Under the pieces are notes generated by a model. The model was not told the DNA's origin, did not search any database, and saw only the letters and a program-made list of their open reading frames with translations. The position numbers and the translations under genes are program-made. Shown here piece by piece: positions 4,278 to 63,857 of a stretch of 64,000 nt of DNA. The DNA is from Octopus vulgaris (Eukaryota), in contig OX597814.1 in NCBI GenBank assembly GCA_951406725.2, positions 30,628,001 through 30,692,000 on the forward strand. The letters run 5' to 3'. Position 1 is the stretch's first letter; each line of letters begins with the position of its first letter.

Positions 4278-5173
4278 GACAGTACAAACATATAAACAGT
4301 AAAAAATATATATATAAACAGTGGAAAAATAAATATATAACAGTGAGAGACAGGACAAGGAGAACAAGATAAGAAGGGCTGTTAACGCCAGACGAAAAAA
4401 GTATTGCAAACGCTGGATTATAGTGGACGACGAGAGAGGAAGATGTCGACCAGTGGCCTTAGAAGGCAGGCGAGAAAGGACGGGATAGCAGTTACGACGG
4501 AAGTACGTCGCAGATGGACGGCGGGAATTGGGGAGGAGGAGCAAGAGGAAGAGAGAGAAGGAGGGGAATGGTGCGAGGAGACCATGAAGAACAGTGAGGG
4601 GAGAGAGAGAGGAAGAGACAAGTTAAGTGAGGGAAAAAAGACGAAAAAAGGGAATGGGAGAGAAAGAAAGAAAGATGCAGAGTCGCGTGAGAGTTAATAT
4701 CAAGGCGAACTTGATAAACAGAACAATCTTACTTAATAGGGTGCGTGCGTTTAGTCGTATAATATGTTAATAAAATATATGCATATATATAAACATATAT
4801 GTACGTACCTACCTCTACATGTACATATACACGCATATATGTGTACAGGACACCAAAAGGACGTCGAACACATAGAGAGACGAAAAAACAGAACATAGAC
4901 GAAACACATAGAAACCAAGGAACAAGACAAGCAAAAAAAGGGAGATACAGGACAATAAGCACAACGAAAAATCCCCTTCTTCAGTCGCTAAAGTTTCATC
5001 TACTAAACGTTTCGAAGGATAAAAGCGAGACGTATACTTCGAATGAAAAATTCCTTCCCGCGAAAAGCAAATCAATTAAAATTCTGAGATCTTGTCGCAG
5101 AGGGGTAAAAAAAGCAAGACGGTAACGACAGTACAAACATATAAACAGTAAAAAATATATATATAAACAGTGG

Positions 5174-5177
<4 letters not shown>
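4278..5177 (-). mobile_element. PLE-like non-autonomous element with ~50-bp terminal direct repeats
   Basis: GACAGTACAAACATATAAACAGTAAAAAATATATATATAAACAGTGGAAAA at 4278 and 5127; abuts (TA)n; carries the reversed-order HHR-like motif. Confidence 0.55.
4971..5033 (-). ncRNA. reversed-strand-order hammerhead-like motif (candidate)
   Basis: Minus strand: ACGUC|UCGCU-uuu-AUCCUUC-GAAA-CGU...AGCGA-CUGAAGA-AGGGGAU; all three helices can form. Confidence 0.55.
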
Positions 5178-5227
<50 letters not shown>

Positions 5228-8570: not shown

Positions 8571-8692
8571 AATTTATCCGAAAAGATGAAAGGCAAAGTT
8601 GACCTCGGCGGAATTTGAACTCAGGATGTAATGAACTGGAAGAAATGACGCAAATCATTTTGTCGGACGCGCTAAAGATTCTGTTAGCTCGG
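8571..8692 (-). mobile_element. SINE family B, partial
   Basis: Reverse complement of GAGCT..CAGAATC.TTAGC..GAGTTCAAATTCCGCCGAGGTCAACTTTGCCTTTCATC. Confidence 0.8.
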
Positions 8693-9425: not shown

Positions 9426-9862
9426 AGGCGGTGAGCTGGCAGAATCGTTAACACGCCGGACGAAGTGCTTAACGGCATTTCGTCCTGTTTTATGTTCTGA
9501 TTTCAAATTTCGCCGAGATTGACTTTGCCTTTCATCCTTTCGGGGTCGAAAAATTAAGTACCAGTTGAGTACTGGGGTCGATGTGATCGACTGTCCTCTT
9601 CCCTACAAAATCCAGGCCTTGTGCTTATAGTAGAAAAGATTATTATTATTTCTAAGGCGGCGAGCTGGCAGCATCGTTAGCACGCTGAGCAAAATGTTTA
9701 GCGGCATTTCGTTTGCCCTTACATTCTCAGTTCAAATTCTACCGGAGTCGTCTATTCCTTTTGTCCTTTCGGGGTCGATAAATTAAGTTAAACACTACGG
9801 TCAATGTAATCCACTAGTCCCTTTCTCCCAAATCTTCAAGCCTTGTGCCTTGAATAAAAAGG
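9426..9862 (+). mobile_element. two tandem SINE B copies (ATT-tailed subfamily)
   Basis: Copies at 9426-9640 and 9655-9862; Meta/Nin-like core TTTGCCTTTCATCCTTTCGGGGTCGA; tails end GGCCTTGTGC..AAAAG(ATT)n. Confidence 0.88.
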
Positions 9863-11002: not shown

Positions 11003-11212
11003 GGCAGCGAGCTGTGTGAATCGTTCGCACACTGGGCAAAATGCTTCGCGGCATTTCGCCCTTCTTTAACTTCTGAGTTGAAATTTGCCGAGACCGACTT
11101 TGCCCTTTGAGGTCGATGAATTAAGTGCCCGTCAAGTACTAGGGTCGATGTAATCGACTATCCCCCTCCTCTCAAATACCGTAGTATAGCGTAGTGCCTA
11201 TAAAAGAAAGGA
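11001..11212 (+). mobile_element. SINE B (ATT-tailed)
   Basis: Family homology; preceded and followed by ATT repeats. Confidence 0.82.
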
Positions 11213-16824: not shown

Positions 16825-19005
16825 GATGAACAAGTGGCGTCGTGAAACCGTCGAGTCGTCGGTGACTAAACTGGCACCCCACTAAGCTTGCTTGGTGAGG
16901 AGGGTGAATTTTCGACACCCTGCAGGATTAAAAACAAAGCCCGGCAAAGACCAGTGGTATTCAAAAGAGTCAAGACAGGGAGACACAACTCGTGAGCCTT
17001 GGTTGGCAGTCTGCCTAGGAGAAGGAATACTCTGATTTCAAAACTGGGGTAGATAGGACTCCTTAGTCACAGTGGTGAAAACCTGTCCCCTGACAGTCAA
17101 CCCCGGCTCCTGCGCAAAACCAACAGAAGTGTGGAAAAAGGCGAGTGTCTGACGCCTCCAAATAACCGGTGCTTCGGGTAGGCTGTACTCGTTAGCCTTG
17201 GGTGGCAAGCAGCCTAGAAGAAGGAATACTCCAATCCCAAAACAGGGGAGCAAGGATCCTACCGCCTTGGCGGACTACCTTGATAGAGATGGTGTCTCGA
17301 TAAAAATATCTATTTCTTTACTACCCACAAGGGGCTACATACAGAAGGGACAAACAAGGACAGACAATGGATTAAGTCGATTACATCGACCCCAGTGCAT
17401 AACTGGTACTTAATTTATCGACTTCGAAAGGATGAAAGGGAAAGTCGACCTCGGCGGAATTTGAACTCAGAACGTAGTGGCAGACGAAATACCACTAAGC
17501 ATTTCGCCCAGCGTGCTAACGTTTCTGCCAGCTCGCCACCGTTTGCTAGTAACCTAAAAACACACCACATTTGTGAGTGAAAATGCCAAGCAAAATAAAT
17601 GACGATAACAGTGTGAACGGGACTGGAACCAATGGTGAAGATGCCGCACCCGGCAGGTGCCCCACTGTGCAGCAGGGTGGGCACGGTCGCAATCCAACAA
17701 CTGCAAGCCATACTAACCTTGCGTAGATCTGAGCCGCATAGAAGAATGGTCCAAAGGAAATGGAAAAATAGAAAAGAAAATGCAAGGGCATATCTAGATG
17801 TGAAGTACCAAATAGAAAATAAAGTGTTCAAAACTGTAATCGAAACCCTAAAACAACATGTGCAGGCAGCAAAACCGGTTATTCTCAAATAACCAGAGGC
17901 AGCTTTTTAAGGGCTTAGAAGGATATACGGAAAATAATACACCTCCTGAAGCAGAAGAAACCCGACGGTTTTGGAATAACACCGGGGGTAATAAGTTTCG
18001 CAAAACCAGTGCTGAGTGGATTCATTCCATGAGATCCGAACTCCATCACCCGGGGACTCCACGACAGGACTATGTGCGCATAACAACGGAAGATGTCATT
18101 GCACAGATATCAAAATTGCCAAACTGGAAAGCAGCAGGACCAGACAGAAATCAAGGCTACTGGATCAAATGGTTTGGGTCAAAACACAAGAGAATTGCGT
18201 TGCAATTAGACAAATGCCTACAGAGCGGTGCAGTTCCAGAGTGGATGGTAGAGGGAAGAACAACATTGTTAATGAAAGACCGGTCAAAGAGCAATGAGGT
18301 TGGCAATTACCAACCCATTGCTTGTCTTAACCTCCTATGGAAAATATTGACAGGTACCCTCGTAGGGAAAATATATACGTTCCTTGCGGAAAACAATCTA
18401 CTGCCAGTAGAACAAAAGGGATGCTGAAAAGGATCCAAGGGCACCAAGGACCACCTTGTGATATACAAGATTATAATGAAGAATTGTAAACGGTACTAAA
18501 AAAACATATGCATGGCATGGATAGACTTCAAAAAGGCTTAAGACATGTTGCCGCATTCGTGGATTTTGGAAACATTCGACATGTGTGGAATAGCTGAGAA
18601 CGTGTGTGCAATGACGATGGGTACAAGTACCTTGGGATCCTGGAGCTGGACAATATCTTGCACAAAGAAATGATAGACAAGTTCATCACTGCATATTTCA
18701 AGCACCTCAAACTTGTCTTGAAATCAAAGCTCATCTCAGGGAATCTTGTGACTGCTTTCAACATATGGGATGTTGCTGTAGTCCGCTATATTGCACCCAT
18801 CCTGAAATGGACACAAGTGGAGATTGACCAACTCGATCGCACTACAGTATGCTGCTAGCACAGAAGGAATTAACAAAAATGGACTTGAGAGTGTTCATGA
18901 ATTCCGATCAAGAACAGCCAACGAGATAGAAGAAACCCTACTCCGTATGGAATTATATGGTCAGTTCCACCGTGAAACCAACAAATTACAAGACCAGGCA
19001 GTCAG
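16825..19005 (+). mobile_element. internally deleted R4/Dong LINE (putative 5' leader plus RT fragments)
   Basis: ORF 17858-18427 KLPNWKAAGPD..GYWIK..PEWMVEGRTTLLMKD..GNYQPIACL..EQKGC; then WIDFKKA.DMLPHSW and YKYLGILE..LKSKL.SGN; 5' boundary uncertain. Confidence 0.85.
17311..17540 (-). mobile_element. SINE B (Tx1-like tail subfamily) nested in the Dong leader
   Basis: Full head plus tail AGCCCCTTGTGGGTAGTAAAGAAATA. Confidence 0.9.
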
Positions 19006-24358: not shown

Positions 24359-24565
24359 AGGTGGCGAGCTGGCAAAATCTTGTGCACACCGGACAAAAAT
24401 GCTTAGCAGTGTTTCTTCGAACTGTTTACGTTTTGAGATCAAATGCCTACAAGTTAAACTTTGCTATATTTTCGGGTCGATAAAATAAATACTCGTCAGA
24501 TCCTGGGATCGATGTAATCGACCTTCACATCCCTTCAAAAACTACTGTGCCAAAATTTGAAACCA
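24359..24565 (+). mobile_element. SINE B, diverged
   Basis: GGTGGCGAGCTGGCA head; TTTCGGGTCGATAAA core. Confidence 0.75.
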
Positions 24566-46574: not shown

Positions 46575-47202
46575 TACACATTATTAAATTATTCGATGTA
46601 ATCTTGAGTTGATGTTGTCATTTGAGGAGGATTAGGTTACTATTTTGAACATGTCAAACCACTCTATACGTCGAGGTTCCATCATATACTTTTGGTGGTG
46701 TCGGTCGTGCAACAAACACACACACACACACACACATACACACACATGCACACATACACACACACACAAACACACACACACAAACGTACACACACATACA
46801 TACACGGAGAATACTTCACATACAGCCGTAGAATCAGTGCTGGCCTTTTCAATACCACCTCTCATATTTGACATATTCATGTATCAATGTTTATACCCCT
46901 TTCAGAAGAAAAGATGATCGTCTTCATTAGTTATACTACAAAGTCCTACCTCCTGATAATTGATTGCCCCCGAGTTGTCAACAAATCTCTTTACGCTTCT
47001 GTTGAATTTTGAAAGTTAGTAACAGAACACACTGGCTCTGAACAAATTTAAACATTTGAAGAATGTGAAAATTCTGAAAACAAAAACCGTCATCGTGAGA
47101 AGGATAGTCATTGCTTTTGCAGTTCAGTTTTCGAAAAATTTAAGGCTGAAGTTGTCATCTGCAAGATTTAAACTCAGAGCACAAACAGTCGGGACAAATA
47201 TC

Positions 47203-47431
47203 TGTTTCTTTACTACCTACAAGGAGCTAAACACAGAGGGGAAAAACAAGGACAGACAAACAGATTAAGTCGATCACATCGACCCCAGTGTGTAACTGGT
47301 ACTTAATTTATCGACCCCGAAAGGATGAAAGGCAAAGTTGACCTCGGCGGAATTTGAACTCAGAACGTTACGGCAGACGAAATACCGCTAAGCATTTCGC
47401 CTGGCGTGCTTACGTTTCTGCCAGCTCGCCG
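47203..47431 (-). mobile_element. SINE B (Tx1-like tail) inserted into an older SINE B relative
   Basis: TSD AGTCGGGACAAATATC at 47187 and 47438. Confidence 0.9.
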
Positions 47432-47838
47432 TAACAAAGTCGGGACAAATATCGTGAGGCATTCTACCAGCAGTGATTACTTTTCATACTAAAGATTATT
47501 ATGCAGCATACCCAAATACTTTAGTCATAACTGCGTTCTTAAATTTAATAAATTTGCTAGATATGTACGGCAAACGTTCGCCGTGTTTATACAATCTTAC
47601 CAGCTATTTCATGTACCTAGTTATTGTATGTATTTTGTGAACTCTGCAAAGGCTAAAATCCTCGTGTATACCCAATAATATACTTTATAACACGCACGCG
47701 TGCGCGCGCACACATACAGATACCGCACCACACAGACACATGTACATGTATATATGTATATATATATGTACATGTATATATATATATATGTACATGTATA
47801 TATATATATATATGTACATGTATATATATATATATATG

Positions 47839-50310: not shown

Positions 50311-51595
50311 ACACCCGTTAAAAGGAGGGCTGGGCATGCCGTGGTTGATGATGCGCAGACACGCGCTGAGACTGCGGCATCTCTGGCTCTATGTAGACGA
50401 CGGTGAACAGGTGTGGTCGCCGTTTGTGAGGCACGCTTTCCCGCAGCTCGTCTCCATGACCGAACTGCAGTCGTGGATCAAAAAGAGGCCGAGGAAGGGC
50501 GAATGGCACCGCGAGTGTCGCGTTGCTCTCAAGCAACTCTGCCGTCCTGGGTCGACCTTAAGTGACTTCAACACAACCAAAGCATTCTATAGGGGTTTAG
50601 TGGAGGGGAGGTACGACGACGAGCTCGGGGCGAACCTGGACGTCGACGAGGAGTACCTGACCCGCCTGTTCAGGACGACTTTCGGGCCAGGGCCCATGGA
50701 CAACTTCCAGAGATCCCTGGCCTGGCAGTGCTACCGAGAAGCGCTACCCGTTCGGGATAAGCTCTACAGACACGGCTCGAGAAACACGGGGCCGACCTGC
50801 CCGAGATGCGGTCAGAGCGACGAAACCGTTCTGCACGCACTCGTTCAGTGTCCAACAATTTCCGACCTGTGGGCTTATGTCGAACAACTGCTGTCACGTG
50901 TGGGACGAGTCGGTTTATCAGCTGAGTCTATCGTCAATATTGTCACGCCTCCTTCCTTCAAACGGGAAGGAAGAGCTATTTTCATCATCCTTGTGGCTAT
51001 GGCGAAAGAATGTATCTGGTGGACGCGTCTGAAAGGATTGGAGATAAACACTTTCCTCTCTGGTCAATCTCTCATCAACTTCTTCAAGTACCACTTGAAA
51101 AGGAAAGTGAGAGTAGAGAGGCAAGTTTTGTCTAGCGAATGTTTTAAAAAAAGATGGGTGAATGTAGCAAGAATGGCACGTATGAATGACGAAGCCACCT
51201 TGAGCATAGTCCTATGAACCCAGAAATCGAAAAGAGAGTTGCTTATTTGCAAAAAAAAAAAAAAAAAAAGAAATATAAAATGTGACTTCATTCACCGAGG
51301 TTACCGTGGTCTTTTCCGTAGGCTTTTCTTTCCACGGGTAAACCTCACCTGTCCTCCCCTTTACACTTCATATTGACATTTCTGTGATAACGATCCCTAT
51401 TGATCAATTTTTTTTTTCTCTCCCCTTTTTTTTAACCCCGCTTTTTTGTCCTCTTTCTCTCCTTTTACGATCTCTTTTGATCGAAACTCCCCCTTCCTTT
51501 TTTTTTTTTTTTTTTTTTTTAAACCTTCAAAAGAAAAGCTCTACCTTGTAATTTGTTCTATCTGTGTGCAGCCCTGTGTGGCTAATAAAGAAACA
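50311..51595 (+). mobile_element. 5'-truncated Tx1/L1-like LINE
   Basis: GC-rich coding body, T-rich 3' UTR, ends AATAAAGAAACA followed by TATCTATCT. Confidence 0.88.
50336..51217 (+). CDS. C-terminal part of Tx1/L1-like ORF2 (post-RT region plus CCHC zinc finger)
   Basis: Frame open from upstream PLKGGLGMP; W...R.ALP..D.L motif; [18 protein letters not shown]; AKECIWWTR. Confidence 0.8.
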
Positions 51596-53021: not shown

Positions 53022-54100
53022 CTAGGTGGTATCAAAAAAATCCTGAATTTTTTCTGTAGCACGCCAACAGATGGCAGCACATGGCTGCGCAGTGACAACT
53101 TGCAGTGTTCCTCAGGGGAGCAGTGCACCGAGTGACATTGCTGTGTTTCCTTCGCAAGTTATGAAATTGTGTTTCTGTGATCAGGTATATGCTGTAGTTT
53201 GTGATTTTTCTCATGGACAGGAAGCTGGAATAAAGAGCCAACGTGAAATTTTGCGCTAAACTTTGGAAGTCTGCTACAGAGACATTAAGCATGTTTCGGC
53301 AAGCTTATAGTGACAAGGCAATGGGTAATACGCAATGTTTTGAGTGGAACGGGCGCTTCAAATGCAGAAAAAAAAACGTCCCTGGAAGACGATGCGTGAT
53401 TTGGAAAACCTACTATGTGTGTCGTCACCCTTAGAAATGCGAAGAAAATGGCGGCGAGCTGCCAGAAACGTTAGCACGCTGGGCGAAATGCTTAGTGGTA
53501 TTTCGTCTGACTTTACGTTCTGAGTTCAAGTTCCGCCGAGGTCGACTTCGCCTTTCATCTTTTCGGGGTCGAAAAATTAAGTAGCAGTTACGCACTGGGG
53601 TCGATGTAATCGACTTAATCCGTTTGTCTGTCCTTGTTTGTCCTCTCTGTGTTTATCCCCTTGTGGGTAATAAAGAAATAGGTATTTCGTCTGCCGTTAC
53701 GTTCTGAGACAATCAACGACAGTTTGAAGAGTTTGAGTGGCAACATTCGGCGAAAGCGACTGGATCAGTGGAGGGCGAAGGTCGTGATTCGTCACGACGA
53801 CAATGCAACCCTGTCACCTAGCTCCCCTCACTCGTGAGTTTCTCACCAAAAGCAACATGGTATCCCTTCCGCACTCGCCCTGTTCGCCAGAATTAGCACC
53901 CAAGGATTTCCATCTCTTCCCCAAGATAAAAATACAGCTCAAAGGTCGCTCTTTTAAAACCGTTGTCGAGATCAAGAGCAAACCCCAGAAGGTCGACTCG
54001 CTTACAGAAAACGACTTCCAGGCCGGATTCTAAAAGTGGCAGGAACACTCGGACCGGTATATTTCAAAGGAGATGATGTTAAAACTTAGGTAAATAAGAT
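53022..54100 (+). mobile_element. deleted mariner transposon interrupted by SINE B
   Basis: KFCAKLWKSATETLSMFRQAYSD..FEW.GRFK; HDDNA..LPHSPCSPELAPKDFHLFPKIK. Confidence 0.88.
53450..53708 (+). mobile_element. SINE B (Tx1-like tail) plus the start of a second unit
   Basis: Tail ends 53680, followed by GGTATTTCGTCTGCC. Confidence 0.9.
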
Positions 54101-55636: not shown

Positions 55637-56063
55637 CTGTATCTGTGTCTGTGTGTAAAAAACCTAGAAACTTTGGTATTCGTCCCGAGAAAGCATCTCG
55701 CGTAGACGTATAGTTTTTTTTTAATTACTGAAACGTATTAGTTAGAAAGTAAAAGTATCTAGCAGCAGTGGTAGTATTGTTAAACACGTATTATCGCTTC
55801 AGTGAGCATCATCACTAGAAAGCATGCAGTAGTAACAACATACTAACATAATTTCAGTCTTTATCTGCATAGGAAAACAGTGATTAACTGCGACACTAGT
55901 GATTAATCATTATATTTCTATATCAGTAAAGACTAAAGTTGTCTTAGCATGCGTTTGCTAGAGGACATTCTTGAGTACAACACTTTATCTCAAGTTGCTC
56001 TGCGAACGCTTTGAAATTTGACGTGTGGAAGACCGTGCATCTGTATAGTCAATGTTGATTTAA

Positions 56064-56485
56064 TGGCACGAGCTGGCAGAAACGTTAGCACGCCGGGCGA
56101 AATGCGTAGCCGTATTTCGTCTGCTGCTACGTTCTGAGTTGAAATTCCGCCGAGGTCGACTTTACCTTTCATCCTTTCGGGATCGATTAAATAAGTACCA
56201 GTTACGCACTGGGGTCGATGTCATCGACTTAATCCGTCTGTCTGTCCTTGTTTGTCTCCTCTGTGTTTATCTCCTTGTGGGTAGTAAAGAAATAGAAATA
56301 GGTATTTCGTCTGCCGCTACGTTCTGAGTTGTAATTCCGCCGAGGTCGACTTTGCCTTTCATCCTTTCGGGGTCGATTAAATAAGTACCAGTTGCGGGCT
56401 AGGGTCGATATGATCGACTTAATCCGTTTGTCTGTCCTTGTTTGTCCCCTCTATGTTTAGCCCCTAGTGGGCAATAAAAAATAAG
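56064..56485 (+). mobile_element. SINE B dimer (Tx1-like tail)
   Basis: Second unit begins GGTATTTCGTCTG at 56301. Confidence 0.9.
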
Positions 56486-56568
56486 AGTGAGCTAATGTAC
56501 CGTACAAATATTTGATCGTTATAAACAAATCGGTGCAAATTGTTCGACAATGAACAAATCTTACACCA

Positions 56569-56959
56569 TCTATTATATAAAATCCGTTCTGTGTGTGTGT
56601 GTCTTCTAGCATCTTGGGCATCCTCCATCCGATTGCGCTCAAATTTGATATGTAGATACCGACGACATCAGGGCGTGTATAAGTCTTGAAAAAATTACAA
56701 AAATCGATTCTAGGTGAGAATGCGATCGATAAAGCCATGGGAACGTGCATTTGTACGCGCAAGTAAATCAGCTGTTGCGATCGATACTACGCGTACGCGA
56801 GAAAAATGCACGTGCAGTTATATAAAATCCGTTAAATCAGTGTTTTTCAAAAGGGAGGCCTATGGGACGGGCGGGCAAGTTGTTTTGAGAAAATTTGGTT
56901 TAAATGTTTGACAACTCAGCACCGTCCATTGGACGGGGAGGGTGGGGGCGGTTTGCTCG
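56569..56959 (+). mobile_element. non-autonomous Helitron-like element
   Basis: A|TCTATTATATAAAA start, hairpin CCGTCC att GGACGG, CTCG|T end (CTAG variant). Confidence 0.7.
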
Positions 56960-63484: not shown

Positions 63485-63857
63485 TTATTTCTTTATTGCC
63501 CGCAAGGGGCTAAACGTTGAGGAGACAAACAAGGACAGACAAACGGATTAAGTTGATTACATCGACCCCAGTGCGTAACTGGTACTTAATTTATCGACCC
63601 CGAAACGATGAAAGGCAAAGTCGACCTCGGCGGAATTTGAACTCAGAACGTAACGGCAGACGAAATACCTGTTTCTTTACTATCCACAAAGGGCTAAACA
63701 CAAAGGGGACAAACAAGGACAGACAAATGGATTAAGTCGATTATATCGACCCCAGTGCGTAACTGGTACTTATTTAATCGACCCCGAAAGGATGAAAGGC
63801 AAAGTCGACCTCGGCGGAATTTGAACTCAGAACGTAGCGGCAGACGAAATACCGCTA
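63485..63857 (-). mobile_element. SINE B dimer (Tx1-like tail)
   Basis: Junction AAAGAAACA|GGTATTTCGTCTG at 63670/63669. Confidence 0.9.

Follow-up and report, generated by a model that had tools for sequence, protein, structure and literature searches.

The window, a stretch of 64,000 nucleotides of Octopus vulgaris DNA, contains several copies of SINE B, a 232-nt repeat in which a tRNA-like head is followed by a conserved core and a LINE-like tail of 65 nt. A full-length copy with the T220 tail allele is located at 47203..47431 on the minus strand, where it interrupts an old relative at position 49. This copy is preceded at its head by about 6 extra bases (47432-47437) and differs by 4.8% from the majority sequence of our sample; SINE B positions are numbered throughout from the copy at 47434-47203. 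It is flanked by two TSD copies of 16 bp that match each other exactly, the 5' copy at 47438..47453 and the 3' copy, which begins with GATATTT on the minus strand, at 47187..47202 (both minus strand). The old host SINE lies on the same strand in two parts, a 5' part at 47454..47485 that corresponds to about family positions 17-48 in the empty-site alignment, and a 3' part at 47117..47202 that corresponds to positions 49-138 with about 70% identity. After in silico removal of the insert, the joined flanks matched family positions 17-138 at 79 of 113 aligned columns, and the junction fell on position 49. This alignment scored 73, while none of 300 shuffles exceeded 44.5; a comparable score was obtained with 11 of 300 random genome segments, possibly including real relatives. 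The preliminary description had read this copy as an insertion in an old, diverged host with a 16-bp TSD. The exact 16-mer and the junction on position 49 bear this out, and the copy at 47203 is a true insertion in a decayed relative at position 49. Public contigs of relatives yielded no empty site: four runs with one locus (L062:1550-6750) were swamped by paralogous SINE contigs, and for 46812-47226 of the window one contig of organism B spans the flank and 22 nt of the tail, with the site filled, which is uninformative on the empty state, while organisms C and D yielded no orthologous contig.

Other SINE B copies in the window end at similar junctions. A monomer at 17311..17540 (minus strand) lies in unique DNA with the flank GATATTT, where no TSD could be found. 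At 53450..53708 (plus strand), a SINE B copy (53450-53680) runs into family positions 49-76 (53681-53708) and then into unrelated DNA; the sequence around this shortened dimer at 53709-53900 bears a likeness, judged by eye, to a Tc1/mariner transposase fragment. Two seamless dimers complete the set. The dimer at 56069..56484 (plus strand) consists of a T220 unit, a 6-nt tail repeat and a C220 unit that begins at position 49 (56301-56484), and the dimer at 63486..63857 (minus strand) consists of a 5'-truncated T220 unit (63857-63670, from position 45) and a C220 unit from position 49 (63669-63486). Five junctions, at 17311, 47203, 53680, 56300 and 63670, had been proposed to read AAAGAAA(T/C)A followed by G(G/A)TATTT. 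All five are present, but the strict pattern fits four, because at 56300 the tail end is repeated over 6 nt ahead of GGTATTT. The accompanying proposal that junctions fall at an equivalent internal position of another copy agreed with the alignments, since 53680, 56300 and 63670 lead into another copy at its position 49 and 47203 hits position 49. The ends at 56485 and 63485, which had been set apart as departures from the rule, do depart from it; both are C220 tails, and the departure is attributable to this allele having a different target spectrum.

SINE B is short, non-coding and present in high copy number, with TSDs and 5' truncations, as expected of a SINE. Exact copies of 30-nt tail alleles numbered 48,463 in the genome for one allele and 10,891 for the second, and 7,275 of the 48,463 run directly into an exact match to the 15 bases that begin at position 49. 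Motifs resembling A and B boxes were recognized by eye in the head; ARAGORN detected no tRNA, and Rfam returned no family at threshold, including no ribozyme, for the region searched (56000-56600). The head and core may relate to the OR1/OR2 tRNA-derived CORE SINEs of Octopus. PMC5804259 places OR2 of Octopus vulgaris among the CORE SINEs, and literature searches turned up no target preference of OR1/OR2. An older A subfamily has head and core in common with SINE B and a different tail. A-type relatives with other tails occur in the window at 9429-9815, 11007-11159, 24363-24522 and 8578-8691, often adjoining (ATT)n, and near 4965-5220 of one sampled locus (L059) two inverted SINE B fragments have a 14-bp stretch in common and end in (TAG)n/(TAC)n. 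The head contains a 12-bp hairpin with position 49 at its loop edge, and the fold of the whole SINE B was no better than that of shuffles (z -1.07). The hairpin pair 44/49 is T-G in 102 cases, G-C in 47 and T-A in 28; C49, which ruins the target motif, is most frequent among young SINE B monomers. This pair variation represents one or few events and is hence weak evidence for structure. No run of four T is present in SINE B, and transcripts are therefore expected to read into the flank.

Junctions were counted in a sample of 251 sequences (1.95 Mb), which comprised the window, further loci chosen around a tail or a LINE end, and 88 unselected regions of 10 kb at round coordinates (880 kb, referred to as unselected DNA). 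Generic repeat finding mostly returned microsatellites. We discarded tails that had less than 80% identity, lay close to the end of a locus, were duplicates across loci or had no SINE core (9), and retained 328 tails in 230 chains. These tails continued at position 49 of a family member in 157 cases, at position 16 in 8, elsewhere in 3, and into other DNA in 160. The junction was exactly at position 49 in 147 of the 168 SINE-continuing cases, and this concentration is therefore not chance. The fraction of insertions inside the family, a check that the preliminary description had suggested, came to 28 of 62 tails at position 49 in unselected DNA, with 3 at position 16 and 31 in unique sequence; the position-49 cases were spread over 19 of the 34 tail-bearing regions. 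SINE B is thus a target-specific SINE as defined in PMC4494074, with more than 20% of its flanks being one kind of sequence. SINE B had itself been named as the host, and B hosts are indeed hit, but the hosts span a wider family that includes older A subfamilies: 12 of 48 chains in unselected DNA terminate in a non-B relative at position 49.

The target in unique DNA was read from the TSDs, which were detected in 66 of 145 chains that end in unique DNA and in 4 of 600 shuffled pairs. Among 57 non-simple TSD cases, 46 begin within -3 to +1 of the tail end, and the median length is 16 bp. In the 5' TSD copy (n = 50), the base ahead of the insertion point is never G (0 of 50), and the bases after it are G/T/A, G/A (47), T (38), A (36), T (32) and T (23). 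This motif, a base other than G followed by the insertion point and DRTAT(T), lies inside the copy that predates the insertion and is therefore target-derived. The flanking-base check was carried out in the 1.95-Mb sample and showed that the flanks of tails are non-random. The earlier proposal of GRTATTT as the target holds insofar as the motif occurs in both TSD copies; GRTATTT is only the best case of the broader motif.

The target also tracks the tail allele, with G at +1 in 52 of 83 T220 ends compared to 11 of 72 C220 ends (p = 1.6e-9). GRTAT opens 30 of the 83 unique ends of T220 tails (background 0.22%), and GRTATTT opens 9, while GRTAT opens 3 of the 72 unique ends of C220 tails, where TAT.. 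and AR.. prevail. Copies with C220 are older than those with T220 (4.8% versus 3.3%). Position 16 is a second fixed junction, with 7 of its 8 cases formed by C220 tails (e.g. L067, L082, L091, L036); one A tail likewise joins position 16 (L037). Two tail alleles with two targets, 49 and 16, are an unproven hint of a target memory carried by RNA, and the link between allele and target fits equally well with two partner LINEs that were active in different periods.

Position 49, where the insertion point lies between a C and GGTATTTC, is the best motif site in SINE B according to a weight matrix built from unique ends. The matrix predicts at most 0.9% of insertions at position 49 (160 sites in 880 kb). 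In unselected DNA, 24 of 43 T220 tails were observed there, or 10 of 30 chain ends when only non-B hosts were counted, so that position 49 of family members is used about 40-60 times above the motif prediction. It is used in the sense strand only. Other motif-like sites in SINE B, with a summed score of 358 versus 298 for position 49, received 1 antisense event compared to 130 at position 49, with no more than two counted per chain. The matrix prediction and this internal-site control exclude the motif alone as the cause of position-49 use, and a general preference for SINE chromatin is excluded by the near absence of insertions at equal-quality sites in SINE B. The proposal that SINE B targets its own family is supported by use of position 49 far above motif expectation.

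Most junction chains consist of positions 1-232 followed by position 49 to the end, with no host head upstream. A host head is kept upstream in 6 of 101 chains (control 1 of 86), and the hosts of these six nested chains tend to be decayed; taken by itself, the excess of nested cases (five, with an expectation of 2) does not reach significance (p = 0.06). The ages of the joined units were compared. An A host is older than the preceding B unit in 28 of 36 fusions, with 5 in the reverse order (7.9% versus 4.5%), and the A parts of fusions are diverged like free A copies (8.0% versus 8.8%, 39 each, p = 0.34). Neither the A hosts (39) nor the second units of dimers (35) form sister groups, and hosts of SINE B carry at least three tail types. 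The units of 24 pure dimers differ as random copies do and are 8-11% apart; a T220 unit stands ahead of a C220 unit 25 times and in the reverse order once, and B-B dimers have no significant age order (16 versus 12, p = 0.14).

The heads of the fusions were also informative. The head (positions 8-48) of single B-A fusions is diverged by 8.9% (n = 22), compared to 10.0% in free A copies (n = 21) and 5.1% in B monomers (n = 44); the fusion heads (76/857) are old like A and unlike young B (87/1716; p = 0.0003). Positions 50-66 are of intermediate age and the body is young. This combination of an old head, an old host and a young middle fits insertion in place and not the copying of a dimeric master, and we estimate that the host head is retained in about two thirds to three quarters of cases. 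Part of the heads derives from the insert, as 14 of 88 fusion heads bear the B-only G44/C49 pair and B alleles predominate at 62/64 in first units (64T in 4 of 24, versus 13 of 23 hosts). The G44/C49 head is a poor target and is depleted in fusions (14/88 versus 20/45). Mismatches between outer TSDs are fewer in B-A fusions (5/136, 9 TSDs) than in free A copies (15/132, 7 TSDs; p = 0.02) and resemble those of young B (23/428), and some composites may therefore have moved whole. Neighbouring units in arrays of three to six have 13-28% of rare variants in common (versus 1-2%) in a staggered arrangement, which shows that these longer arrays grew by local duplication after the first junction.

Located in the window at 50312..51595 (plus strand) is a 5'-truncated young LINE that comprises the end of ORF2 with zf-RVT and the 3' UTR, stands in a (TATC)n array and has a tail resembling that of SINE B. 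Its family is very young (150 scored matches, 99-100% identical, many with an intact ORF2; L141-L172), and nearly all of 35 tails read are inserted in (TATC)n. One member (L171) encodes a 454-aa ORF1 and a 1145-aa ORF2 with Exo_endo_phos, RVT_1 and zf-RVT. By its predicted domains the family is a two-ORF LINE whose ORF2 carries APE, RT and a C-terminal zinc motif. The endonuclease of L171 is nearest to that of L1 among solved structures, and none of 56 homologues is informatively named. The SINE B tail aligns with the 3' ends of several LINE families, with no identical partner tail among them, and (ATT)n and (CT)n are the targets of related families in this tail class. The LINE at 50312-51595 is a relative of the presumed partner and not the partner itself. 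The search that had been recommended, for a Tx1 LINE with the same tail and target, thus returned L1/Tx1-like LINEs of the same tail class, but their targets are microsatellites. Protein and DNA searches of the genome yielded families that target (TATC)n, (ATT)n and (CT)n as well as ORF1-only elements, and no LINE with position 49 as its target was found in the 1.95 Mb plus 17 LINE ends.

Several further elements were noted. Young ORF1-only elements of about 1.66 kb (L251-L270 and L132, e.g. L251:170-1832) belong to the same tail class, have the tails closest to that of SINE B, and encode a 457-aa ORF with a CCHC knuckle that is 28% identical to ORF1 of the TATC LINE. They form chains in which each tail runs into a sister element at a fixed site, and they are likely a second lineage that targets its own family. 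A LINE with a 1144-aa ORF2 at L271 (G000:C4:93.80-93.83 Mb), also on contigs C47 and C50, forms head-to-tail arrays with a period of about 5.87 kb joined by short (ATT)n, and its dispersed copies end in (ATT)n too. A diverged LINE end with a similar tail is followed by (CT)n at L200:4079-4330.

These observations are best explained if SINE B inserts into existing family members at position 49 with, in many cases, seamless fusion to the host, a reading that we regard as probable. SINE B would be mobilized by a LINE that is likely L1/Tx1-like. A nick would be made ahead of D-R-T-A-T at position 49, reverse transcription would be primed there and start at the tail end, and a second nick would follow about 16 nt further on. 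Being homologous to the host, the new cDNA would anneal to the upstream host strand around positions 49-65, so that the product would be the host head, a new body and tail, and the host remainder, with a gain of 184 bp and no visible TSD. Where the host is too decayed to anneal, the copy would instead be nested and flanked by a TSD, like the one at 47203. Local duplication afterwards enlarges the arrays of three to six units. A comparable cDNA/target heteroduplex yields precise 5' junctions in R2 (PMC3774820).

Seamless joining alone would suit any sense site, and something must therefore single out position 49, or 16 for C220. Copies at position 49, having no Pol III terminator, could give RNA that reads on into GGUAUUUCG..., and this read-through RNA could pair with the nicked target and send the element back to the same site; this is the weakest step of the scheme. 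Read-through target RNA lifted R2Ol insertion from 12% to 96-98% (PMC6530143), and comparable RNA-target pairing is proposed for SART1 and R1Bm (PMC7265360). The match of unique targets to SINE B fades after +7, which speaks against RNA guidance, and a sign of RNA overwriting target bases was not significant (7 versus 1, p = 0.07). We hold RNA guidance of target choice to be a tentative proposal with slightly less than an even chance of being right. A more far-reaching version is doubtful: a heritable, RNA-encoded target memory in which terminatorless masters transcribe their landing site, two subfamilies are locked on 49 and 16, tens of thousands of older copies are seamlessly rewritten, and the compensatory G44/C49 pair of young copies keeps the hairpin and removes the target, conferring self-immunity.

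Site choice could also lie in the protein alone, with the LINE endonuclease reading a longer sequence or a hairpin/cruciform at positions 33-60 and no RNA guidance involved, an explanation that we consider about as likely as RNA guidance, if somewhat short of probable. It is compatible with seamless joining and would ascribe the allele-target link to two partner LINEs whose activity fell at different times, in keeping with the greater age of C220 copies. Target choice in Tx1 is set mainly by the endonuclease, as stated in PMC4494074, LINE families of this tail class have distinct microsatellite targets, and position 49 lies at the edge of the hairpin loop. The half of insertions that lie in unique DNA with merely a 5-7-nt motif, and the failure to find a LINE at position 49 in 1.95 Mb, count against it. 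A different event, a template jump at the RNA level in which reverse transcription on a family RNA switches at position 49 to the 3' end of a B RNA, is suggested by the tail end being the reverse complement of positions 51-56 in sequence, and would agree with the independent units and young outer TSDs; it predicts a young B head where the heads are old, leaves the TSD-nested copies, the unique-DNA motif and the 25:1 allele order unexplained, and is very unlikely.

The remaining explanations place the origin of the junction in copying. B-B and B-A dimers may have arisen rarely and then retrotransposed whole as multimeric masters, with the junction inherited. The young-looking outer TSDs of B-A fusions, the TSDs that flank whole arrays, and the 95 of 101 chains without a nested host head are in line with such masters, and dimeric SINEs are known (PMC10702118, PMC8466645). 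We nevertheless find this unlikely, given hosts as old as free copies with at least three tail types and no sister groups, old heads on young bodies, and TSD-flanked nested copies at the same base; many independent masters would themselves require many primary insertions at 49. A dimeric SINE amplified as a unit, of the Alu type, was rejected because the hosts are older, form no sister groups and belong to mixed subfamilies. On the preliminary choice between insertion and a multimeric master, a master is disfavoured as the main route, and some copying of whole composites is possible. DNA-level duplication or rolling-circle, retrozyme-like copying of the 184-bp unit could likewise create the junction, and the staggered private variants common to neighbours in arrays of at least three units fit such a process; it is refuted for dimers, whose units are unrelated and often of different subfamilies, and Rfam found no ribozyme or other family at threshold. 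A non-LTR retrozyme was rejected on the lack of an Rfam match in 56000-56600 and the 8-11% distance between dimer units. DNA-level duplication accounts for the growth of arrays and not for the first junction, as the source of which it is exceedingly improbable.

Insertion at position 49 of existing family members has several consequences. It would offer a safe harbour without a host gene array, in which each new body gets an intact promoter head, and it seeds 184-bp tandem arrays. The tens of thousands of natural events provide a test of how far RNA-target pairing sets the insertion sites of APE-type LINEs, and bear on whether annealing of cDNA to the target primes the second strand. Mosaics of head and body, together with hidden TSDs, will skew subfamily calls and age estimates for a dominant SINE in this genome.

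Few SINEs are target-specific, and none that targets its own family was found in the open-access literature; subscription papers, supplements or Repbase may describe one. The available part of a 2026 repeat annotation of Octopus vulgaris (PMC13282606) holds no passage on SINE targets or nesting. The closest system is SINEU-3 of crocodilians, which targets a Mariner element via Tx1-Mar (Kojima 2015, PMC4494074) and resembles SINE B in a target within a repeat, a 16-bp TSD, tandem sequential insertions and a presumed Tx1 partner. The target of SINEU-3 is a Mariner DNA transposon, whereas that of SINE B is the head of its own family; tandem copies of SINEU-3 sandwich a TSD, whereas SINE B joins are mostly seamless. 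Unlike SINEU-3, SINE B makes half of its insertions in unique DNA, with a target that varies by tail allele. Tx1-clade LINEs (Tx1L in Tx1D, Keno, Kibi, Koshi; PMC4494074) are target-specific, like the APE-type LINEs that hit (TATC)n, (ATT)n and (CT)n here; no LINE with position 49 as its target was found. R2 and R1 (PMC3774820, PMC6530143, PMC7265360) resemble SINE B in the proposed steps, RNA-target pairing and heteroduplex 5' joins, but are autonomous and reside in rRNA genes or telomeres, whereas the homology of SINE B would come from being its own target. Finally, in B2 and Dip multimers and squamate SINE-derived satellites (PMC8466645, PMC10702118), about half of the copies are multimeric and tandem growth is local, as in SINE B. 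Those multimers and satellites consist of whole units linked through their A tails, or are duplications, whereas SINE B units are joined at a fixed internal base, probably by insertion.
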